IMG/VR virus record: IMGVR_UViG_2534682060_000017
Coordinates: 1 to 40,668 of that record
Reading direction: 5' to 3' (one strand)
DNA length: 40,668 nucleotides
Source: a virus
Lineage: Duplodnaviria > Heunggongvirae > Uroviricota > Caudoviricetes
Below the pieces are notes generated by a model. The model searched no databases, had not been told where the DNA came from, and worked only from the letters and a program-made list of their open reading frames with translations. Within the stretch, counting starts at the first letter, position 1; each line of letters opens with the position of its first letter. Positions 1 to 31,233 of the stretch are shown piece after piece. The translations under genes and the position numbers were made by a program.

Positions 1-1020
1 CTACTTACTGACCACAAGCGGCAAATCCAGTGTTGGTGTTATTTTGGTTTTACGATCGTAAATCAACACCTGATTTTCTGTTTTGTGTCCACTGAAAATT
101 TGTTTGTCGCGACTGCTGCCTTCGTAATCTGAAATCCCTTTGGCTTTTATGTCATGGAAGTTGCACCCAAACGGAACGCCGGCTTTTTGCTCGGCTGCAC
201 GTTTAGCCTGATTCCACCAGTTGTTCAGCGTCTTGGCTATTACCTTCCCGCCTTTGGTTGTGTTGATCACATACTCGCATGTGCCGGAAGATACATTTCG
301 GGCTAACTGGATCGCCGTACGTAATCGCGGAGACCATTCCTTGATTTGTTTAGTGCCGGTCTTGTTTTGCTCAATGTAAATCCCTTTCTCCATAATATCC
401 TGCCATTTCAGCTCGAGTACATCACCGAGCCTTGCCGCACAAAGATAGGATATCTCCATTGCAATACGTAACTGTGGAATTGCTTCCGCATATATTGCAG
501 CATACTGTTCATCGGTGATGTAAACAGTACGGGCTTTAAGTGTGAATTTTCTGACTCCTTTGCATGGATTATTTTTCACATACCCACGCTCATATCCCCA
601 TCCGTATACACGGCTCAGACTTGCCAGTTCATGGTTTGCCTGGGTCTTGCTCTCAAGTCCTCGCTTATCCATGAAAATTCTTACCTGTTCAATTTTTACA
701 TTATCAGCAAGCACTTTTCCGAATACTGCCAACAATGCCCTTTGATGTTGCCGATAATCTTTTTGGGTTCGGGGGGCCAGTTCTGTAAATGCAGGGGAGT
801 CCATAAACATGTGCCATAATTTAGCTACTGTCATTATGTTGTGGAGTTTTGCTTTTTCCAGCTCATAATTTTGCCAGACTTTAGCTACGCTGGTTTCCCG
901 CACTCTTCCGAGCCCTATAGTTCTTGTGCTTCCTTCGGGTTTCCATACGTAACTGTAACCATTCGATCTAACACGCGGTGGTAGTGCATTATCTTTTTTG
1001 TTTTTTCTTGGTCTTCCCAT
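1..1020 (-). CDS. int: Phage integrase, tyrosine recombinase family
   Basis: 339-aa ORF complete with stop at 1-3; lambda-Int-like length and C-terminal His/Arg/Tyr-containing region (..SGHKTENQVLIYDRK..); sits at prophage left end next to an excisionase-like gene. Confidence 0.9.
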   Translation of the reverse strand: MGRPRKNKKDNALPPRVRSNGYSYVWKPEGSTRTIGLGRVRETSVAKVWQNYELEKAKLHNIMTVAKLWHMFMDSPAFTELAPRTQKDYRQHQRALLAVFGKVLADNVKIEQVRIFMDKRGLESKTQANHELASLSRVYGWGYERGYVKNNPCKGVRKFTLKARTVYITDEQYAAIYAEAIPQLRIAMEISYLCAARLGDVLELKWQDIMEKGIYIEQNKTGTKQIKEWSPRLRTAIQLARNVSSGTCEYVINTTKGGKVIAKTLNNWWNQAKRAAEQKAGVPFGCNFHDIKAKGISDYEGSSRDKQIFSGHKTENQVLIYDRKTKITPTLDLPLVVSK

Positions 1021-1240
1021 TGTTCAGCGCCTCAAAATCGGGTTCAGCGGAAACCAGTTCAGGTGCTTTTGGCATCGTAGTCAGTCCGTGTGGAATATCC
1101 CTGCGAAGAACTATTGGTTCGTTTTTAGGACCGATTACAAATGGGATACCGTGCAGCCTTAACTGGTGTTGCTGTTTTGTGTATCGCTCGTATTTCGTGA
1201 TCTCTTGAATCTCTGCTGGCGATAGAGTTAATTCGTACAT
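989..1240 (-). CDS. Putative excisionase-like small basic protein
   Basis: 83-aa ORF directly upstream of int and overlapping its start by 32 nt; lysine-rich C-terminus; position typical of xis; no strong RBS seen. Confidence 0.45.
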   Translation of the reverse strand: MYELTLSPAEIQEITKYERYTKQQHQLRLHGIPFVIGPKNEPIVLRRDIPHGLTTMPKAPELVSAEPDFEALNNGKTKKKQKR

Positions 1241-1306
1241 GTGGTCACGTGCCTTACAGCATGACCGCCGCCAATATAATTCGGGGACGGCGATCAGGGT
1301 TGAACA

Positions 1307-3778
1307 TTAAAAATCAACCGGATTCGGGATCAGTTTTTGCCAGATTGCTGAAACGTATTTTGCCTGGTAACGGGCGTCATCAAGTGCATTATGGCGCTCA
1401 CCTTCGAATGGAATAGCCGTTCTGGCATCGAAGTCTATGGCTTTCCCCAGCTCAACGATTGTGCGTACATCGCGATCGTTGTAGTAACGCCACGGGCAGG
1501 GGATCCCCTGCCGTTCGTATGAACGGCGCAAAATCGTGTTGTCGAAGTTGGCTCCATTTCCCCAGACCTGAACAAAAAATTCACCGGAGTTTTCGTCGAT
1601 AAATTCCCGCAATTGTAACAGTGCATCATCTAACGGGATTTCATCGGTCATAATGGCAGATTGCGCTTCGCGTGATTGCTTAAGCCACCATTTAATGGTG
1701 TCCCGATCAATGACTCCGCCAGCAGTTTCCAGATCGATAGTCTTACTAAATTCCGGTCCCATATCTCCGGTTTGCGGATCGAAAAATATTGCACCTATTG
1801 AGATAATCGGGGCATCAGGATTTTTTCCCATGGTTTCAAGGTCGATCATTAGATGGTCACACGTCCTGCTGGTGGATGTGATAACGTGATGACCGTTCAC
1901 CGTAATTAAGGGATCTGCCGTCTCGCCAGTTTCACTATCGCTGGCGTGATCCTGAGCGCTGCCAGCATTCTCTTTGTGTGGATGTTCAGCGCCTTCCATT
2001 TTCTCCGAATCGTCTTCCTGAACTTCAACCTGGTTCTTGTCATCGAATGTTTCCTGGTATGTTGCGTCGCCCATCACCGCACCACAATCAGGGCAGTTGC
2101 CGCCGCCGGTCTGACCGCAGGCGGTGCAGACTTTTTCCGCTTCCTGTTGCGCTACTGGCTCAGGTTGTTTCGTTTCTGGCTCGTTTTGTAACGCATTTGG
2201 GCTGTTTTGTTCCGCTTTCTGGTCGTTCTGTTCCGTTTCTTGCTGGTTCTGATTCACTGAATCGCGGGTTTCAATCCCCTTCACCCATTTCGGATCATTC
2301 GGGTCGCTAATCCCTGCAACAAATTCACCACGTGATACAGCAAGCAACTTATCGGCGTCAGGCTGGCTGATATTGGCTGCCTGCATAATTTTGTTTACTT
2401 CGTCAGCGGTAACTTTTACCGGCTCTGGTTGTGCGGTCGTGTCAGATGCACCAGTATTTTGTTGTGAACCTGAGTATGTACCGTTTTTACGGGCAAAATA
2501 TTCTTCTTTCGTGATTTCAGTAGCCCCTGCAGTCAGCGCCTTATTCAGACCAGAAAGTTTGTTTGCGCGACCATATTTTTCGCCATCCTTATCTGTGAAG
2601 AGGAAGTAGAACGGCCCCTCACGCTCTACAGATGGTTCGACTTCAACTTTGCATTCGGTTTTTTCGTTGTCCGGAATTGCCGTTTCCACTGCATCAGTTT
2701 CTGGTACTGGCGACGAGAGAGTATCAGTTGCGCTCTGATTTGTTCCTTCATCTTCAAACACGCCCTTTGTAGTCAGGTATTCAGTAATGTATTTGTTCAG
2801 TGCCACAGGGTCTTTGTGAATGTCGATCGGACGTTCACGGACAAGGCCAAAAATAGTCTGTCGGTCGTAGCGAAGGGCATCAGGCTGTTTGCGCATTGAT
2901 GCCGAGATACGCTTCCAGTCTTCGCGGTCGTTGTCGATAACTTCATTTTTTGCCCAGCGATGGATGCTGCCGTCAATGTTTCCGGCATCCACATCACCAG
3001 GCCAGAGAGCGTAGGCCAGTTCGTCATCCAGTGTTTTCCATGTCTGCTTGTATTCGCGATGAGTGGCAGCAATGACCGGGCTGATTTTTCCTGTTGAATT
3101 GTCAGTGTACTGTTGATTGGCTCTGGCGCGGGCGAGATCAACAACAGACGTGTATTTTCCGGTTTCCTTGCGTTCACCTTCGCGACGTTTTTTCCAGATG
3201 CGCATCTCTGCCTGAATTTCGGGCCATTTAGCACCAGGAATACATTTATGCTTAACCCACCCAATGGCGTGCAACTTAAGCTCCGGATACATGGCGTTAA
3301 CTTCTGGCATTTTCATCAACGCTTCAACGATATGTCCGTCGAATGTTGCCATGTCTTCCTGCAACAATTCCTGTGCGCTAATAACCATATCAACGGTGAT
3401 GTTTTCACATGTGTCGAACTTAACCAGGACCGCGTTCTGTACTTCAGGGGACAGCTTGTCAAAATTGACGTTCATCGGATCGGATTCTGGCTCGACCGGA
3501 ATAAAGGAAGCGGATTCCTCATCCCAGCAGTTTTCCTGCATATATTCGGTATCCCAGGAGTCGATGGCAGGGCGGGGCATGCCGGGTTTATCCTCGCAAA
3601 CAAGAAATTTATAAGCGCAGTCCTGAGCAGCCGGATATTGCTCCAGGAATTGCCAGGTAAATTTGGCTCGGGCGCGGCGTTCGTCGCCGGCTTCAATGGC
3701 AGTGGCTACAGCGACTGCACCTTCTTCCTTTATTGCCTGTTCGTCCGGAATGGCGGCGCAAATAAAGACTTTACTCAT
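1307..3778 (-). CDS. RecE-like exonuclease (exodeoxyribonuclease VIII-like) with C-terminal DEDDh/DnaQ-like 3'-5' exonuclease domain
   Basis: 823-aa ORF; C-terminus carries DLETMG ... HNALDDARY motifs typical of DEDDh exonucleases; central acidic low-complexity linker; GAGG about 10 nt upstream of ATG. Confidence 0.8.
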   Translation of the reverse strand: MSKVFICAAIPDEQAIKEEGAVAVATAIEAGDERRARAKFTWQFLEQYPAAQDCAYKFLVCEDKPGMPRPAIDSWDTEYMQENCWDEESASFIPVEPESDPMNVNFDKLSPEVQNAVLVKFDTCENITVDMVISAQELLQEDMATFDGHIVEALMKMPEVNAMYPELKLHAIGWVKHKCIPGAKWPEIQAEMRIWKKRREGERKETGKYTSVVDLARARANQQYTDNSTGKISPVIAATHREYKQTWKTLDDELAYALWPGDVDAGNIDGSIHRWAKNEVIDNDREDWKRISASMRKQPDALRYDRQTIFGLVRERPIDIHKDPVALNKYITEYLTTKGVFEDEGTNQSATDTLSSPVPETDAVETAIPDNEKTECKVEVEPSVEREGPFYFLFTDKDGEKYGRANKLSGLNKALTAGATEITKEEYFARKNGTYSGSQQNTGASDTTAQPEPVKVTADEVNKIMQAANISQPDADKLLAVSRGEFVAGISDPNDPKWVKGIETRDSVNQNQQETEQNDQKAEQNSPNALQNEPETKQPEPVAQQEAEKVCTACGQTGGGNCPDCGAVMGDATYQETFDDKNQVEVQEDDSEKMEGAEHPHKENAGSAQDHASDSETGETADPLITVNGHHVITSTSRTCDHLMIDLETMGKNPDAPIISIGAIFFDPQTGDMGPEFSKTIDLETAGGVIDRDTIKWWLKQSREAQSAIMTDEIPLDDALLQLREFIDENSGEFFVQVWGNGANFDNTILRRSYERQGIPCPWRYYNDRDVRTIVELGKAIDFDARTAIPFEGERHNALDDARYQAKYVSAIWQKLIPNPVDF

Positions 3779-4064: not shown

Positions 4065-4247
4065 TCAGCGTCCTTTTTGCATCAGGCGTAAACGGGCCAG
4101 CATTGAAACAATGCATATTTGATTTAATAGCTCCCGTTCGTGTTTTCTCTTGTTAATGGCATCTTCAGTAAATACAGGGTTACTGATTCTGACACCAATT
4201 TCAAAACAACCTTCAGACGTATTGACGTTTGGTAATAACGTTTCCAT
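4065..4247 (-). CDS. Hypothetical small early-left protein (kil-like position)
   Basis: 60-aa ORF; GAGGA RBS 7 nt upstream of ATG at 4247; position corresponds to kil in Rac/lambda early-left operons; identity not verified. Confidence 0.45.
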   Translation of the reverse strand: METLLPNVNTSEGCFEIGVRISNPVFTEDAINKRKHERELLNQICIVSMLARLRLMQKGR

Positions 4248-4265: not shown

Positions 4266-4423
4266 GAATTTTGTGATGCGGTGCCTGGTGCCTCCAGGTG
4301 ACGTTAACCAGTTAACAATTAACGCCGGATACAGGGAAACCCATAAACCCCCGATACGGGGGAACTAATCGCTTTTTAACTGTTCCGCGTGCGCTTAGCC
4401 GCATTCACCGCATCACAAAATTC
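4266..4423. repeat. Perfect 18-bp inverted repeat pair (GAATTTTGTGATGCGGTG / CACCGCATCACAAAATTC) flanking a 122-bp segment
   Basis: Arms at 4266-4283 and 4406-4423 are exact reverse complements; interior has two GTTAAC palindromes and a CCCCCGATACGGGGG hairpin. Confidence 0.6.
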
Positions 4424-4791
4424 ACTTTAAAAAGGGCGGACATCAGCCAGCAATTAAACTGATGCCGCCAAAGGTCTCACACAAGCCTCAACATGGAGAT
4501 GTTGTGGCGGGGTTGTCACTCAGGCGTATGGTCAACCTGACAACCCGGTGCTACCAGTGGGGGTAAGGATAACCCCGCCATACTTACCGCCGCGCCATTT
4601 CGCGGAGTGCCACAACCGGAAGCGCACGGTCGAAGATACCGGCGACACGCAACAGAGGGAGAAATGACTTCGCCGTGCGCTTTCGTGTTGTGTGCCTGCT
4701 TTTAACCACGTCAGGCGAGGTGGTTCCTGTCATTCCCCAACGACAAGAAATCTGTATAATCTGGATATCCCCAACGATCCAAGGAAATCAT

Positions 4792-4938
4792 ATGACAGAG
4801 CAAAGAGCACAAGCAGGTGGTGGCAATTCGACACATAAAACAGTCTGGGATCACATACCAGAGAAAAACATTCGACCAAAACCATCTCCAGCTCCTTCGG
4901 AGGAGAGGGGGAACAGCAACAACCAAACAAGCAGGTGA
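4792..4938 (+). CDS. Small hydrophilic ORF (48 aa) translationally coupled to the SieB-like gene
   Basis: TATAAT at 4755-4760, AAGGA RBS 6 nt before ATG 4792; stop 7 nt before the downstream start at 4945. Confidence 0.3.
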   Translation: MTEQRAQAGGGNSTHKTVWDHIPEKNIRPKPSPAPSEERGNSNNQTSR

Positions 4939-4944
4939 TGATGT

Positions 4945-5391
4945 ATGGACCGGGATGATATTCTTGACAGAATTTTATATGGCTATTTTCTTGAGCAACT
5001 ATTTTCGGTAGCAACTGGTCGTCTCGATAAACTTCTCTCAGTGGTGAGTATTATCCTCGGTTCATCTGTCATTGGCGGATTCATTCCGGAAATTTCTGGC
5101 GTTTTTATTGTTGTGATCGCAACCGTCCAAACGATTTATGGATTCGGACAAAAGTCAGGTAACGCCATGAGAAAATCCGCAGAATATTTGCAGCTTTTTG
5201 ATGATGCAGAAAAATATTCTGATTCTGAATTGAAAATGCAGTTAAAAATTCTGGAAAAAACGGATGTTCATATTTGGTCATCACTTAAAGATATTGCGAT
5301 CTTAAAAACACAGATCAAAATAGGCGTTTCCATCGAACAACAAGAGAAGCTGCCCACAAAATCTAAATTGATGCGATTTCTTTGTAGTTAG
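4945..5391 (+). CDS. Putative superinfection exclusion membrane protein (SieB-like)
   Basis: 148-aa ORF on opposite strand inside the early-left region, as sieB is in lambda/Rac; long hydrophobic segment LSVVSIILGSSVIGGFIPEISGVFIVVIATV; AGGTGA RBS. Confidence 0.5.
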   Translation: MDRDDILDRILYGYFLEQLFSVATGRLDKLLSVVSIILGSSVIGGFIPEISGVFIVVIATVQTIYGFGQKSGNAMRKSAEYLQLFDDAEKYSDSELKMQLKILEKTDVHIWSSLKDIAILKTQIKIGVSIEQQEKLPTKSKLMRFLCS

Positions 5392-5444
5392 GAATATCCA
5401 GAATGTTAAAGAGCATGCCGGAGATTTATCCGTGTCCGGCGCAT

Positions 5445-5469
5445 GTTCTCCACCTTACCCGTGGAGAAC
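5445..5469. terminator. Hairpin between convergent genes (possible bidirectional terminator)
   Basis: 9-bp perfect stem GTTCTCCAC / GTGGAGAAC with 7-nt loop, between the SieB-like gene end and the minus-strand gene end. Confidence 0.4.
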
Positions 5470-5844
5470 TTAATGATTAATTGATATTTTATAGTTGGCT
5501 TCAACTTTCCCATCTGAAGTGGGATGCTTTAAATCACAGGAATTAATGTTGCACTCAGTAAAATGGTTTTTAAGGGGTTCTATTCGAATCCCTTTCTTTT
5601 CCATCAACAAACCAAACCCCTTGTTAATGATATCCATTAATTCCAGGAAGTATTTTTCAGAGGAATCATGCTTATCAGAGTGCTGCTTCTCTTCGTACAA
5701 CCCGATAAAGGCACGGCGCACGTTACCGGATATATTATCTATGGTTTCTTTTTCTACGGTACTCAGGTCAAGAGTCGCCAGTTGGGAACGAACTATATTC
5801 GCTGCCATTTCCTGGAATTGCATTGGTAAATCTTTAAATTCCAT
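5470..5844 (-). CDS. Hypothetical early-left protein
   Basis: 124-aa ORF; GAGG RBS 6 nt upstream of ATG at 5844; TGATG overlap with upstream gene stop. Confidence 0.5.
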   Translation of the reverse strand: MEFKDLPMQFQEMAANIVRSQLATLDLSTVEKETIDNISGNVRRAFIGLYEEKQHSDKHDSSEKYFLELMDIINKGFGLLMEKKGIRIEPLKNHFTECNINSCDLKHPTSDGKVEANYKISINH

Positions 5845-5855
5845 AGTCAACCTCA

Positions 5856-6008
5856 TCAGTCAGTATTTCTGGCTAACCAGCGACGCGCGCCAGATTCGGT
5901 TTTAAACGTTTTGCTTTTGGTATACGTCATCGCGGTGAATATGCCGTCCTGGTTGGGAAACACGCCGTATACCAGAGATTCGTTGTTGCCAAGATCGATA
6001 GTATCCAT
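5856..6008 (-). CDS. Small Rac-type early protein (YdaF/YdaG-like, 50 aa)
   Basis: ATG at 6008 preceded by GAGG (5-nt spacing); product MDTIDLGNNESLVYGVFPNQDG... resembles small proteins encoded next to racR in Rac prophage (from memory). Confidence 0.5.
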   Translation of the reverse strand: MDTIDLGNNESLVYGVFPNQDGIFTAMTYTKSKTFKTESGARRWLARNTD

Positions 6009-6327: not shown

Positions 6328-6804
6328 TTAAGTTCCAGTTTTTGTGATGTTCTGGCTTTTCCGTTCAGATTCTAGAGCTTTCAGATACTTACCCACTTTC
6401 ATTTCCATCGCTGCTATGTAGGCGCGAACATCGTGGTCAACCCAATCTGGTTCTGTAGCATTTCCAGATAACAGGAAAGCTACAATCGCTCTTATTTCAT
6501 CAGAGGCTGCTTGATAAAGGTTGTTTATATCTAAAAGTTCACTTTTTGTATCTGAATTGGTGGGGGTTGGTATGGGGTATTCGTTAAGCCCCCAATGCTC
6601 TGGACCAACAACATCAGAAAAGAAACGCCATAATTCTGGAAGTTTATCTTTACTTATAGAGCCTTTCTTAATCCAGTCATAAATTGATGGTGGTTGGACT
6701 TTGAAGTGGCGTGCGACCTCCGCCTTTGATTTGACGGATCCCGATGCGATTTTTTTGTTAATGGCCTGCTCTATCGCTCGGCCTAAGTCTTTACCACTAA
6801 GCAT
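6328..6804 (-). CDS. racR: Rac prophage repressor RacR
   Basis: 158-aa product beginning MLSGKDLGRAIEQAINKK... recognised as RacR; AGGAG RBS; divergent from ydaS/ydaT. Confidence 0.85.
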   Translation of the reverse strand: MLSGKDLGRAIEQAINKKIASGSVKSKAEVARHFKVQPPSIYDWIKKGSISKDKLPELWRFFSDVVGPEHWGLNEYPIPTPTNSDTKSELLDINNLYQAASDEIRAIVAFLLSGNATEPDWVDHDVRAYIAAMEMKVGKYLKALESERKSQNITKTGT

Positions 6805-6849
6805 TGCTTAATATTCTCCTATGCTCATTGCATTAGGCAATCCCTACCT

Positions 6850-6901
6850 TTATCGCATTAGGCATAGCCTATTGACATTTGCGTTAGGCGTCGCCTAATA
6901 T
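6850..6901 (+). promoter_or_regulatory. Predicted rightward early promoter (pR analogue) with palindromic operators
   Basis: TTGACA (6872-6877), 18-bp spacer, TAATAT (6896-6901); spacer contains perfect palindrome TTAGGCGTCGCCTAA; upstream near-palindrome TTAGGCATAGCCTAT. Confidence 0.5.
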
Positions 6902-6927
6902 TTCTGTGTGTTTTTGGAGTTCATTCG

Positions 6928-7224
6928 ATGAAAAAAGAGAACTATTCATTCAAGCAAGCTTGTGCTGTTGTCGGTGGGCAATCAGCAATGGCTAGGCTTT
7001 TAGGTGTATCACCTCCAAGCGTAAATCAATGGATCAAAGGGGTACGTCAATTGCCTGCCGAGAGATGTCCAGCAATTGAACGTGCAACAAGAGGTGAGGT
7101 TCTGTGCGAAGAACTTCGTCCTGATATTGACTGGTCATATTTACGACGTTCGGCATGTTGTTCGCAGAATATGTCAGTGAAGCAACTAAATGACAGTAAC
7201 AAATCCTCATTTGATCATACCTGA
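6928..7224 (+). CDS. ydaS: YdaS-like Cro/HTH-type protein of the RacR-controlled toxic module
   Basis: 98-aa product MKKENYSFKQACAVVGGQSAMARLLGVSPPSVNQWIKG... (HTH); GGAG RBS; divergent from racR. Confidence 0.8.
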   Translation: MKKENYSFKQACAVVGGQSAMARLLGVSPPSVNQWIKGVRQLPAERCPAIERATRGEVLCEELRPDIDWSYLRRSACCSQNMSVKQLNDSNKSSFDHT

Positions 7225-7246
7225 AACATCAAGAGGCAAATGATTC

Positions 7247-7672
7247 ATGAAAATCAAGCATGAACACATCCGCATGGCGATGAATGCCTGGGCGCGTCCT
7301 GATGGCGAAAAAGTTCCAGCAGCTGGAATAACCCAGGCTTATTTTGAGTTGGGTATGACGTTTCCTGAACTGTATGACGATAGCCATCCGGAAGCCCTGG
7401 CTCGCAATACCCAGAAAATTTTCCGCTGGGTAGAGAAAGACACTCCTGATGCGGTTAAAAAAATTCAGGCGTTGTTACCGGCTATCGAAAAAGCAATGCC
7501 ACCTCTGCTGGTGGCCCGGATGCGCAGCCACAGTTCAGTCTATTTTCGGGAGTTGGTGGAGACGCGGGAACGACTGGTGAGAGACGCTGATGATTTTGTC
7601 GCAGTGGCAATCGCCGGTTTCAATCAGATGAATCGTGGTGGCCCGGCAGGAAATGCTGTGGTGATGCACTAA
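7247..7672 (+). CDS. ydaT: YdaT-like protein
   Basis: 141-aa ORF immediately downstream of ydaS; AAGAGG RBS; matches Rac gene order racR-ydaS-ydaT. Confidence 0.8.
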   Translation: MKIKHEHIRMAMNAWARPDGEKVPAAGITQAYFELGMTFPELYDDSHPEALARNTQKIFRWVEKDTPDAVKKIQALLPAIEKAMPPLLVARMRSHSSVYFRELVETRERLVRDADDFVAVAIAGFNQMNRGGPAGNAVVMH

Positions 7673-13192: not shown

Positions 13193-13879
13193 TACTAAAA
13201 TAAATTTGGAAGTGCTGTTACAATAGATAGAGGCTCATTGTCGAGTCTCTGTTTTAATTAGTTGGTTATTTTATGTTTATTTATTTCGATATCAGATAAA
13301 AAATCAATAAAGACAGCTTTGTTGCTAGTATTTAATTCTGTAGTAATATACGGATAGTTGTTTTCTGATATACCACATATCTTTAATTGTTGGTTTTTGT
13401 CTTAGTTGATTTAAATTCAATCAACCACTCCAGCAACCTAAATATTCCTCCAGTTCCAAACAATGAATATATGATCAGGAGCATAGCACTGCTCTTCATT
13501 AAAAATTTACACTTAGTTTTGAGAAAACTGCTTACGTTATCTTAACTCTGAATTTGTACATCTTAAGAAGTGCTAGTTATATTTAGTTGTTGTGTTCCAT
13601 GTTTTACAGAAAAATCAGAGAAACTGTACTCAATAGTTGCATTTCATCACTGATGAGACCGCCTTGTATTTATCAGGACTGGTGTACGTCCGATACAGAA
13701 AGTTGTCGTGCTGGTCCTCAAATGTGCGCTGGCTATTGCGGGTAATGGCAATTTATTGTCTTGCTATTGTCCTTATGGATCGCCTTTCTGATTGATTTTA
13801 TATTGGCGAGGTAACGGGAGTTAAGTACAATGGCTGCGGGTGCTTGAGGCTATCTGTCTCAGGCATGAACACCAAAGGC

Positions 13880-13960
13880 AGATAGAGAAAAGCCCCAGTT
13901 AACATTACGCGTCCTGCAAGACGCTTAACATTAATCTGAGGCTCAATCTATGAACGGCAA
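13880..13960 (-). ncRNA. Predicted Sok-like antisense RNA region (approximate)
   Basis: Inference from hok/sok architecture: antisense RNA normally overlaps the hok leader/upstream ORF start; possible minus-strand promoter TTGCCT-17-TAACCT near 13955-13985; boundaries uncertain. Confidence 0.25.
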
Positions 13961-14006
13961 ATCTAGGTTAGCCTCTTACGTGCCGAAAGGCAAGGAGAAG
14001 CAGGCT

Positions 14007-14162
14007 ATGAAGCAGCAAAAGGCGATGTTAATCGCCCTGATCGTCATCTGTTTAACCGTCATTGTGACGGCACTGGTAACGAGGAAAGACCTCTGCGAGG
14101 TACGAATCCGAACCGGCCAGACGGAGGTCGCTGTCTTCACAGCTTACGAACCTGAGGAGTAA
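14007..14162 (+). CDS. hok: Hok/Gef family type I toxin
   Basis: Product MKQQKAMLIALIVICLTVIVTALVTRKDLCEVRIRTGQTEVAVFTAYEPEE closely resembles Hok/Gef; in-frame upstream ATG at 13950 gives a mok-like extension; mRNA leader resembles the R1 hok leader. Confidence 0.8.
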   Translation: MKQQKAMLIALIVICLTVIVTALVTRKDLCEVRIRTGQTEVAVFTAYEPEE

Positions 14163-29274: not shown

Positions 29275-31233
29275 ATGCAGGCTGGTCACCAGAGTGACGC
29301 GGATATTTATATTTATGACGAGATTGGTTTCTGGGGTGTTACAGCGAAGCAGTTTATCAGTGATCTGAATGCACTGGGCGATATCACCCACATTAATCTC
29401 CATATTAATTCACCGGGTGGCGATGTCTTTGAAGGCATCGCCATTTTTAATGCGCTGAAAACACATGGTGCGTCCATTACCGTTTATGTCGACGGTGTGG
29501 CGGCGTCAATGGCGTCGGTCATTGCGATGGTGGGAAACCCGGTCATTATGCCGGAAAACACCTTCATGATGATTCATAAACCATTTGGCTTTACGGGCGG
29601 TGATGCGGAGGACATGCGCACCTATGCCGACCTGCTCGATAAAGTTGAGGCGGTTCTGTTACCCGCTTATGCACAGAAAACCGGGAAAACCACCGATGAA
29701 ATTGCTGCCATGCTGGCGGATGAGACCTGGATGTCCGGTGCCGAATGTCTGGCACAGGGATTTGCTGATCAGGTAACGCCAGCCGTTAAGGCAATGGCAT
29801 GTATTCAGTCAAAACGTACAGAGGAATTTAAAAAGATGCCGGAATCCATTCGAAACATGATTACTCCGCCACGCAACAGTGCTCCACGCGTACAGGATGA
29901 TGAACCTGCAGTCTCCCGGACGCCAGTGCAGGCAGCAGCACCCGTGGTGGATGAAAACAGTATCCGTGCGCAGGTACTGGCAGAGCAAAAAGCGCGTGTA
30001 AACGGTATTAATGATCTGTTTGCCATGTTTGGCGGGCGCTATCAGACGCTGCAGGCTCAGTGTCTTGCCGATCCTGAATGTTCGCTGGAGCAGGCCCGCG
30101 AAAAGTTGTTGAACGAGATGGGGCGCGAGTCCACGCCATCCAATAAAAATACCCCGGCTCATATTTATGCCGGTAACGGTAATTTTGTGGGGGACGGGAT
30201 CCGCCAGGCGCTGATGGCGCGTGCCGGATTTGAAAAAACCGAACGTGATAATGTCTACAACGGGATGACCCTGCGTGAATATGCCCGTATGTCACTGACT
30301 GAACGGGGTATTGGGGTTTCCGGTTATAACCCGATGCAGATGGTCGGTGCGGCGTTCACACACAGTACGTCTGACTTCGGTAATATTCTGCTGGATGTTG
30401 CGAACAAAGCCATTCTGCAGGGCTGGGAAGATGCCCCTGAAACCTATGAACAGTGGACGCGGAAAGGTCAGTTGTCTGATTTTAAAATTGCCCATCGTGT
30501 GGGTATGGGGGGCTTCAGTGCTCTGCGTCAGGTGCGTGAAGGGGCGGAATATAAATACGTCACCACCGGAGATAAACAGGCCACTATTGCACTGGCGACC
30601 TATGGTGAGCTGTTCAGTATCACCCGTCAGGCCATTATCAATGATGATCTGAATATGCTGACCGATGTCCCGATGAAACTGGGCCGTGCGGCGAAATCCA
30701 CTATTGCCGATCTGGTTTATGCCATTCTGACGTCTAACCCGAAAATCTCCACAGATAATGTAAGTCTGTTCGATAAAGCGAAACATGCAAACGTACTGGA
30801 GAGCGCTGCAATGGACGTGGCATCGCTGGATAAAGCCCGCCAGTTGATGCGCGTTCAGAAAGAGGGGGAGCGTCATCTGAATATTCGTCCTGCGTTCGTA
30901 CTGGTACCGACGGCGATGGAGTCTGTTGCTAACCAGGTCATTCACTCCTCAAGTGTCAAGGGGGCTGACATTAACGCCGGTATTATTAACCCGGTGAAAG
31001 ATTTTGCGACCGTTATTGCAGAGCCTCGTCTTGATGATAACAGCCAGACCACCTTCTACCTGGCTGCGTCAAAAGGCTCCGATACGATTGAAGTGGCTTA
31101 TCTCAACGGTGTGGATACGCCATATATTGATCAGATGGAGGGCTTCAGTGTGGATGGCGTGACAACGAAAGTGCGTATTGACGCCGGTGTCGCGCCAGTT
31201 GATCACCGCGGTCTGGTGAAATGTACGGCGTAA
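29275..31233 (+). CDS. Fused prohead protease (ClpP/S49-like) - scaffold linker - major capsid protein
   Basis: N-terminal region IYIYDEIGFWG...INSPGGDV...ASMASVIAM matches ClpP-like serine protease; C-terminal 300+ aa capsid-like; one continuous frame; strong terminator after stop. Confidence 0.8.
   Translation: MQAGHQSDADIYIYDEIGFWGVTAKQFISDLNALGDITHINLHINSPGGDVFEGIAIFNALKTHGASITVYVDGVAASMASVIAMVGNPVIMPENTFMMIHKPFGFTGGDAEDMRTYADLLDKVEAVLLPAYAQKTGKTTDEIAAMLADETWMSGAECLAQGFADQVTPAVKAMACIQSKRTEEFKKMPESIRNMITPPRNSAPRVQDDEPAVSRTPVQAAAPVVDENSIRAQVLAEQKARVNGINDLFAMFGGRYQTLQAQCLADPECSLEQAREKLLNEMGRESTPSNKNTPAHIYAGNGNFVGDGIRQALMARAGFEKTERDNVYNGMTLREYARMSLTERGIGVSGYNPMQMVGAAFTHSTSDFGNILLDVANKAILQGWEDAPETYEQWTRKGQLSDFKIAHRVGMGGFSALRQVREGAEYKYVTTGDKQATIALATYGELFSITRQAIINDDLNMLTDVPMKLGRAAKSTIADLVYAILTSNPKISTDNVSLFDKAKHANVLESAAMDVASLDKARQLMRVQKEGERHLNIRPAFVLVPTAMESVANQVIHSSSVKGADINAGIINPVKDFATVIAEPRLDDNSQTTFYLAASKGSDTIEVAYLNGVDTPYIDQMEGFSVDGVTTKVRIDAGVAPVDHRGLVKCTA

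Follow-up and report, generated by a model that had tools for sequence, protein, structure and literature searches.

Introduction

The lambda proteins RexA and RexB exemplify phage exclusion by two proteins expressed from a prophage, the membrane component being thought to depolarise the cell upon infection. Another exclusion locus, sieB, is found in P22, lambda and the Rac prophage of Escherichia coli K-12; SieB aborts the lytic growth of superinfecting phages, and self-protection is provided by an in-frame product, Esc, and by the antisense RNA sas, both present in P22. A third group of relevance are the SLATT proteins, predicted pore-forming effectors or accessory modules with two to three transmembrane segments that belong to CBASS, DRT, AbiA and RADAR systems (PMC9226505; bioRxiv 10.64898/2026.04.29.721553). 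How SLATT proteins are silenced and activated is still an open question according to the DRT10 preprint (bioRxiv 10.64898/2026.04.29.721553). Here, we describe a two-gene cassette at positions 4755–5391 of a 40,668-nucleotide stretch of viral DNA (IMG/VR record IMGVR_UViG_2534682060_000017), which is analysed at full length and denoted "the window" in the following. The window is a Rac/Qin-like lambdoid prophage of E. coli. The cassette consists of a short open reading frame (ORF) of 48 codons and a gene for a 148-residue membrane protein. Its gene structure and conservation, the homology of its slot and promoter to those of sieB, the absence of a relationship between its membrane protein and SieB, and a remote similarity of that protein to SLATT proteins are documented below. 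The reading that we lean towards, with modest confidence, is a self-contained mobile cassette in which a SLATT-like membrane effector and a small obligatory partner serve exclusion or abortive infection from the sieB slot, under a promoter of the sieB type.

Results

The cassette occupies the sieB slot and shares its upstream DNA

The gene order in K-12 Rac is kilR, the small RNA (sRNA) kilS, sieB on the plus strand, ydaF (DUF1391), ydaG, racR, ydaS and ydaT. The two ORFs of the window occupy the position of Rac sieB, flanked by the sRNA on one side and the DUF1391 gene on the other, both of which are encoded on the other strand (coordinates of all features are collected in Table 1). Rac and the window are nearly identical across the sRNA region and diverge beyond it. 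Every gene flanking the cassette, i.e. dicB, a DicF-like sRNA, a 128-residue ORF, the DUF1391 gene and racR, lies on the minus strand, confirming the earlier sequence-only reading that the pair forms a rightward unit antisense within the early-left operon. The same reading had likened this arrangement to that of sieB-type exclusion genes, and the comparison holds for the DNA as well as for the position: in the alignment, approximately 100 bp on the 5' side of the first plus-strand ORF are homologous among the window and the sieB loci of Rac, lambda and P22. The ATG of the small ORF aligns with the sieB ATG of Rac and lambda, and the P22 sieB start lies two aligned columns downstream.

The perfect TATAAT and the AAGGA ribosome-binding site reported upstream of the small ORF are both present. 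TATAAT occurs seven times in the window, against 16 copies expected, and the hexamer by itself is thus not beyond chance. The promoter was called because of homology to P22, whose record (BK000583) places the sieB promoter at 29690–29720 and the sieB RNA start in this very stretch. The window hexamer aligns on the P22 −10 region, and the P22 RNA start, an A directly 5' of a CCCC equivalent to the second copy of the repeat described below, corresponds to a position near 4767 in the window, just 5' of that copy. The cassette is predicted to be driven by a weak sigma-70 promoter homologous to the sieB promoter.

The −10 hexamer is bracketed by two exact copies of the 10-nt repeat TCCCCAACGA at a spacing of 34 nt. 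Both copies are conserved, and they change jointly across lineages, with CCCCTACAG present twice in lambda and P22, TTCCACGCAAAA twice in locus L060, and CACCACAACAGC twice in L062 (numbers of this kind denote the loci that were compared). This joint change suggests that a common factor recognises both copies, and the arrangement looks like a duplicated promoter-leader unit.

Further upstream, a conserved element of two interleaved complementary pairs (positions 4694–4723) has a pseudoknot-like topology. Lambda, P22, Rac and a Hafnia phage carry it ahead of sieB, and in the phages SfIV, Kp4882-1 and phiES15 it lies 5' of unrelated plus-strand genes. Compensatory variants are GCCCGG/CCGGGC in Rac, GGCTG/CAGCC in L058 and CTAC/GTAG in L007; minimum-free-energy folding of the element is unexceptional on either strand, and the pairing is backed by these three variants alone. 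As the annotated RNA start of P22 sieB is downstream of the element, its action would be through a minus-strand RNA or on the DNA itself, possibly as a sas-like minus-strand RNA structure, an operator or an older promoter. An extended −10 of the TGnTATACT type immediately follows the element on its 3' side in phiES15, L058 and L068. Judged from its varied contents, the sieB slot looks like a conserved socket with exchangeable cargo, a hotspot of exchangeable genes expressed from prophages.

A conserved small ORF precedes the membrane-protein gene

The description of a hydrophilic 48-residue ORF upstream of a 148-residue membrane-protein ORF is borne out by a grand average of hydropathy (GRAVY) of −1.63 for the former and two hydrophobic helices in the latter. 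A small correction concerns the junction, where the distance between the stop codon of the first gene and the ATG of the second is 6 nt instead of the reported 7 nt. The small protein is characterised by a core, HIPEKNIR, which is located 12–20 codons before the stop and followed by a PxPxPxP or polyproline stretch; in the window, this stretch reads PKPSPAPS and is devoid of a PP dipeptide.

Homology searches of the small ORF gave a divided result. The ORF itself was recovered throughout: a proline-rich frame of 26–56 codons, with its stop 3–18 nt before the large gene, is present in 13 out of 13 lineages examined, and the pairing is kept where the large protein has fallen to approximately 22–36% identity (L054 to L070). 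At the protein level, there is no match in Pfam, NCBIfam, PHROGs or PADLOC, and one matching cluster was found among 5.8 billion proteins. RefSeq/PGAP leaves the ORF unannotated in the five E. coli records inspected. Still, several observations at the nucleotide level point to a translated sequence. The ORF is the sole frame of six that is open in all seven divergent lineages tested, in which synonymous sites are saturated, and minus-strand ORFs overlapping it are interrupted in other lineages. The ratio of nonsynonymous to synonymous differences per site (pN/pS) is approximately 0.45, with pairwise values of 0.4–0.55, at pS values of 0.7–1.0. Within the core, most substitutions affect third codon positions, switches of arginine between CGN and AGR codons occur as well, and length differences between lineages include in-frame insertions and deletions, for example a 6-nt insertion encoding PP. 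An AAGGA- or AGGAG-type motif is retained 5' of the ORF in the aligned enteric lineages. Judged by this conservation, the small ORF represents a genuine gene that constantly accompanies the large one. The pairing is not a by-product of the sieB leader, because a pair in a Sodalis glossinidius prophage resides in a different slot with unrelated upstream DNA.

At the junction, the stop of the small gene overlaps the Shine-Dalgarno-like AGGTGA of the large gene, and for this reason the two cistrons are probably translationally coupled. No significant structure masking the second start was detected in the leader and junction mRNA (folding z = −0.26). Fusion of the two ORFs by readthrough or frameshifting was considered and rejected: in the window they share a frame but are separated by a tandem TGA TGA, and in other lineages the spacing is variable and often not a multiple of three. 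In view of its PxPxPxP or polyproline motif, the small protein may be an extended peptide docking on the cytoplasmic domain of the membrane protein.

The 148-residue protein is unrelated to SieB and remotely similar to SLATT proteins

The near relatives of the large protein come from E. coli and Salmonella and are annotated as "hypothetical proteins". An exhaustive profile search returned 144 representative clusters, the full-length ones being nearly all approximately 150–190 residues long, and a 99-member alignment was used for the family tests. Scans of genome contigs yielded no relative, and those of viral contigs close relatives only, at 91% identity or more. Hydropathy and the AlphaFold2 model agree on hydrophobic helices at residues ~30–47 and ~51–67, joined by a loop of about three residues. 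The N-terminal helix and the helical C-terminal part of ~80 residues would both be cytoplasmic (N-in/C-in). The model was computed from the 99-sequence alignment and reached a predicted local distance difference test score (pLDDT) of 84 and a predicted template-modelling score (pTM) of 0.72; an earlier model based on seven sequences (pLDDT 58) was too poor for use.

The sequence-only reading had called this protein SieB-like. In terms of homology, this has to be abandoned. The protein has no Pfam match at E ≤ 1, no Pfam family covers the 99 family members, and SieB (PF14163) is unmatched in them at E ≤ 0.01, whereas Rac SieB as a positive control matches the Pfam SieB model at 1.5e-31. BLASTP of the large protein against Rac SieB gave E = 0.35, and when the 99-sequence family was compared by hhalign with an alignment of 6 SieB sequences, the probability was 0.2% (E = 0.3). 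The only match of the large protein among Pfam, NCBIfam and PHROGs is PHROG 6315, a group annotated as of unknown function.

Instead, three lines of evidence connect the family to SLATT proteins. Firstly, the NCBIfam model SLATT_4 is matched below threshold by 40 of the 99 members (best E-value 1.2e-5), SLATT_1 by 12 and SLATT_fungal by two, and the matches shown run co-linear with the models. Secondly, the PADLOC models for reverse-transcriptase-associated SLATT proteins (RTasSLATT) match five and three members, and the best model for a CBASS two-transmembrane (2TM) effector matches seven. Thirdly, a Foldseek search of BFVD, a set of viral predicted structures, returned nine SLATT-annotated entries among the top 15, with template-modelling scores (TM-scores) of 0.4–0.69 and probabilities of 0.9–1.0. 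The window protein itself has no NCBIfam or Pfam match; SieB proteins, for their part, have no SLATT matches. Because the NCBIfam, PADLOC and fold comparisons independently agree, the 148-residue protein is probably a distant member of the SLATT superfamily, outside every curated SLATT family.

The cassette is a rare and apparently mobile unit

With 89 carriers among 5426 complete E. coli genomes, the cassette is a rare accessory pair. In E. coli prophages it adjoins differing immunity regions, of the Rac type, of the dicA/dicC type and with other repressors, which shows mosaic exchange around it. Cassettes also occur in Salmonella elements of the Cox/integrase type. The Sodalis pair is oriented opposite to its neighbours, with unrelated DNA upstream. 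As judged from these contexts, the unit is mobile between prophages, elements and slots.

Genomic surroundings

Over the 1.2 kb around the cassette, the window matches the E. coli UTAK-5 chromosome at 100% identity. In that chromosome, RefSeq lists an integrase, an 823-residue exonuclease, a DUF1482 protein and dicB, followed by the 148-residue "hypothetical protein" on the opposite strand; a 124-residue hypothetical protein, a DUF1391 protein, racR, ydaS and ydaT lie beyond it. The identities of DicB, DUF1482 and DUF1391 are backed by Pfam. Just upstream of dicB, the DicF-type sRNA is missed at default Rfam thresholds, and the stretch comprising this sRNA and the adjoining STnc100 match is nearly identical to the region upstream of kilS/kilR in K-12 Rac. 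The 128-residue ORF takes the ydfB/ydfC position of a dicB-type operon. Its residues 1–60 match several other PHROGs, which suggests that it carries a shared N-terminal module.

The two stable hairpins between the convergent 148- and 128-residue genes have folding z-scores of −3.4 on the plus strand and −2.5 on the minus strand. A canonical U-tract is absent on their 3' side, and the terminator scan made no call there; they are a possible cassette terminator. The early-left transcript has to pass these hairpins before it reaches the DicF-like sRNA and dicB. Elsewhere in the prophage, a full-length sok antitoxin RNA was found, implying a hok/sok module.

Table 1 Features of the cassette and its surroundings in the window, followed by features of loci used for comparison (positions in the latter refer to the locus named)
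Feature	Position	Strand	Remarks
dicB	4065–4247	−	Pfam
STnc100 match	4270–4422	−	Rfam, sub-threshold; adjoins the DicF-type sRNA
DicF-type sRNA with intrinsic terminator	4434–4483	−	Rfam 45.4 bits; gathering score 48
Conserved upstream element	4694–4723		GCCTG 4694–4698 / CAGGC 4712–4716; CCAC 4706–4709 / GTGG 4720–4723
Direct repeat, copy 1	4734–4743	+	TCCCCAACGA; at the −35 position of the promoter
−10 hexamer of the predicted cassette promoter	4755–4760	+	TATAAT; homologue of the sieB promoter; predicted RNA start ~4767
Direct repeat, copy 2	4768–4777	+	TCCCCAACGA; start of the predicted 5' untranslated region
Shine-Dalgarno sequence of the small gene	4781–4785	+	AAGGA; 6 nt 5' of ATG 4792
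Small gene	4792–4938	+	48 residues, hydrophilic, proline-rich (MTEQ...HIPEKNIRPKPSPAPS...); full product MTEQRAQAGGGNSTHKTVWDHIPEKNIRPKPSPAPSEERGNSNNQTSR; tandem TGA TGA end 4936–4941
Shine-Dalgarno-like sequence of the large gene	4933–4938	+	AGGTGA; overlaps the stop of the small gene
Large gene	4945–5391	+	148-residue predicted inner-membrane protein; two-transmembrane hairpin
Stable hairpins	5417–5440 and 5445–5469		between the convergent 148-residue (+) and 128-residue (−) genes
128-residue ORF	5470–5856	−	PHROG 6937, function unknown
Immunity region racR, ydaS, ydaT	6328–7672		Rac type
sok antitoxin RNA	13838–14012	+	Rfam RF01794, 110 bits; full length
Shigella phage SfIV gp36 (L064)	1008–1442	+	144 residues; behind a sieB-type element
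Klebsiella phage Kp4882-1 gene (L063)	1011–1526	+	171 residues, with CxxC pairs; behind a sieB-type element
Cronobacter phage phiES15 ORF (L066)	990–1277	+	95 residues, unannotated; behind a sieB-type element
Sodalis glossinidius prophage pair (L054)	2851–3441		46-residue proline-rich ORF (...QPKPVTPPSQ...) and 146-residue relative; between Q antiterminator and holin
Small ORF, E. coli variant (large protein 91% identical)			52 residues; C-terminal half same as in the window, N-terminal half different
Small ORFs, L007–L011 and L049 (large protein 60–67% identical)			43–50 residues; core H[IML]PEK[NDG][IV]R, then PxPxPP or polyproline
Small ORF, L056			29 residues; MERCVDKYEERHVPLRQKPPVPPKPPKEN
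Small ORF, L058			26 residues; ...ERPVPPPKPQRKS
Small ORF, L060			56 residues; ...GAPPKAPPKK
Small ORF, L062			41 residues; ...VEPPKKRPGQS
Small ORF, L069			48 residues; ...APRMPAPPPPPNRGGNK
Small ORF, L070			54 residues; ...KAPPRENPTPKG

Discussion

A putative exclusion cassette and its proposed mechanism

The exclusion cassette that we favour would operate as follows. From the sieB-type promoter, both genes would be transcribed into one bicistronic mRNA, in antisense orientation to the early-left operon, its first cistron specifying the soluble proline-rich protein of 48 residues and its second the N-in/C-in inner-membrane protein with two helices, a divergent SLATT branch. The prophage would express the pair in the lysogen, as with sieB. 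The membrane protein may then represent a latent membrane-permeabilising effector, and the small protein its obligatory partner, either silencing it or tying its activity to a signal of infection. Infection by another phage would free the effector, the energy of the cell would be lost, and the infection would abort. The outcome would resemble that of SieB, via unrelated proteins. The sequence-only reading had proposed that the small ORF contributes to exclusion as a co-factor or regulator. An exclusion function of the pair and a "co-factor" role of the small protein would be plausible.

Several observations weigh against this assignment. The −35 sequence is poor (TTCCCC, three of six positions), and the site went uncalled when promoters were scanned for by consensus. 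As regards the effector, the SLATT scores of the relatives are approximately 14–15 bits, against curated cut-offs of 41–55, and the sole PADLOC match of the window protein is RTasSLATT at E = 0.02, to one model only. The E-values of the BFVD Foldseek matches are weak (3e-3 to 0.1), and no solved structure matched the large-protein model. The neighbourhoods inspected contain none of the nucleotide-signal or reverse-transcriptase partners with which SLATT effectors are usually found; cyclase, SLOG, reverse transcriptase and deaminase genes are all missing. Finally, a 118-bp deletion in six loci (L022–L026 and L048, with three upstream types) removes the conserved part of the small ORF. The deletion, seen in several E. 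coli prophages, was mediated by 11-bp direct repeats within the small ORF, ACAAGCAGGTG, at 4809–4819 and 4927–4937. Three deletion loci were inspected; two retain an undisrupted large ORF, and in the third (L048) it carries a frameshift. As two of the three keep the large ORF, the small protein is not strictly needed for short-term retention of the large gene.

Alternative explanations

The first alternative is that the small ORF is a regulatory leader peptide only, its translation, perhaps slowed at prolines, setting the level of the membrane protein while the peptide itself is functionless. The overlap of its stop with the ribosome-binding site of the large gene, the short stop-to-start gap in the lineages examined, and the deletion variants that keep the large ORF are in line with this, as are the PPP to PPPPPPPP runs of several lineages. 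Polyproline runs pause ribosomes in the absence of elongation factor P (EF-P). However, the PKPSPAPS type of the window is free of consecutive prolines, and EF-P-dependent pausing is therefore not a conserved feature. The distance of the HIPEKNIR core from the stop, the variable length of its flanks, and the absence of a detected mRNA structure that a paused ribosome could open speak against a leader as well. In addition, selection at the amino-acid level extends across the whole core. We consider a mere leader peptide rather unlikely.

Conversely, both proteins could be functional but serve the prophage itself, as a toxin-antitoxin-like addiction or stabilisation module in which a membrane toxin is paired with a small labile antidote for maintenance of the prophage, not against other phages. 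A small gene upstream of a larger, toxic-looking membrane-protein gene at tight spacing resembles type II operons, the window also carries hok/sok, and the cassette moves among unrelated mobile elements. Against this stand the location of the cassette in the sieB slot behind sieB-type regulatory DNA, the presence of other cargo genes in the same slot of other phages, the lack of a DNA-binding domain or family match in the small protein, and the loss of the small ORF from loci in which the large ORF is intact. An addiction module is unlikely on these grounds.

Alternatively, the membrane protein may act at the envelope, blocking phage DNA entry in the manner of P22 SieA or T4 Imm, or modulating lysis or membrane functions of the prophage. 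It is a small two-transmembrane inner-membrane protein from a prophage "moron" slot, and the Sodalis pair adjoins lysis genes. Its nearest detectable relatives are SLATT effectors, i.e. cell-killing or accessory immune modules (PMC9226505). Moreover, its mass is mostly cytoplasmic, and a periplasmic loop of about three residues leaves little surface for interaction with a DNA-injection machinery. This explanation we judge quite unlikely.

Two further alternatives fare much worse. If the small ORF were an untranslated chance frame in the 5' leader, and only the 148-residue gene real, the missing RefSeq annotation and the single matching cluster among 5.8 billion proteins would be accounted for; yet in each of the 13 lineages the frame is open, equipped with a ribosome-binding site and terminated a few nucleotides ahead of the large gene, and its openness persists despite synonymous saturation, in-frame insertions and deletions and differing upstream DNA. 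By a rough estimate, a random frame of 45 codons would be open with a probability of ~0.1 per independent lineage, and a chance frame is very improbable. Lastly, an ordinary sieB gene with an upstream ORF would share the position, orientation and homologous promoter region, and SieB too has N-terminal hydrophobic segments, but this is extremely improbable given that it is already refuted at the level of sequence families, by Pfam for the protein and its 98 relatives, by BLASTP and by hhalign, and that SieB lacks the SLATT matches.

Implications

Beyond the exclusion cassette of the window, a broader proposition can be put forward tentatively, and with more doubt than confidence. The proline-rich protein of 26–56 residues and the divergent SLATT-like two-transmembrane protein may make up a two-gene anti-phage system that is widespread in proteobacterial prophages but has so far escaped description. 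In it, the SLATT-type pore would be controlled directly by a peptide acting as sensor, brake or decoy, and not by a nucleotide messenger or a reverse-transcriptase product, with the sieB slot and its conserved promoter element as a hotspot of cargo swapping. SLATT proteins are among the commonest predicted membrane effectors of bacterial immunity, and the cassette would offer a minimal, genetically tractable SLATT-like case in E. coli prophages, the sole constant partner being a peptide of fewer than 60 residues. It also reveals a small-protein gene that was overlooked by annotation pipelines. For the mining of prophage defences, it will be helpful to regard the sieB position of lambdoid phages as a regulatory "socket" for unrelated exclusion-type genes.

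Comparison with known systems

PADLOC v2.0 contains no system that corresponds to the pair, and we found no paper that names the RefSeq protein accessions or the PHROG of the large protein. Among described systems, RexA/RexB of lambda is similar in its two-protein, prophage-expressed design. There is, however, no sequence relationship, and the systems differ in that RexB has four transmembrane segments, RexA is a sensor of 279 residues, and the rex genes lie beside cI in the immunity region.

With type II toxin-antitoxin and abortive-infection pairs, the cassette has in common a small upstream gene, tight spacing, a potentially toxic-looking downstream product and mobility. Unlike type II antitoxins, its small protein lacks a DNA-binding or known antitoxin domain, and its small gene is lost in some strains while the large ORF stays.

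The resemblance to SLATT effectors comprises the two-transmembrane hairpin with flanking helices, sub-threshold matches to SLATT models, best folds annotated as SLATT, and carriage on mobile elements and prophages. The difference lies in the partner, as the constant neighbour in the cassette is a proline-rich protein of 26–56 residues, and not a nucleotide-signal or reverse-transcriptase partner.

The sieB loci of P22, lambda and Rac share with the cassette the early-left slot, the antisense orientation and homologous promoter and leader DNA, including the interleaved pairs, the direct repeat on both sides of the −10 and start codons at the same aligned column or at most two columns apart. A small inner-membrane protein encoded by the prophage, predicted as such in the cassette, is a further common trait. 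The proteins themselves are unrelated by sequence and profile, and according to the P22 record, sieB of P22 is one gene with an internal start for Esc, whereas the cassette has two separate cistrons. In summary, the nearest system by position and putative function is sieB, and the nearest by protein relationship are the SLATT effectors.

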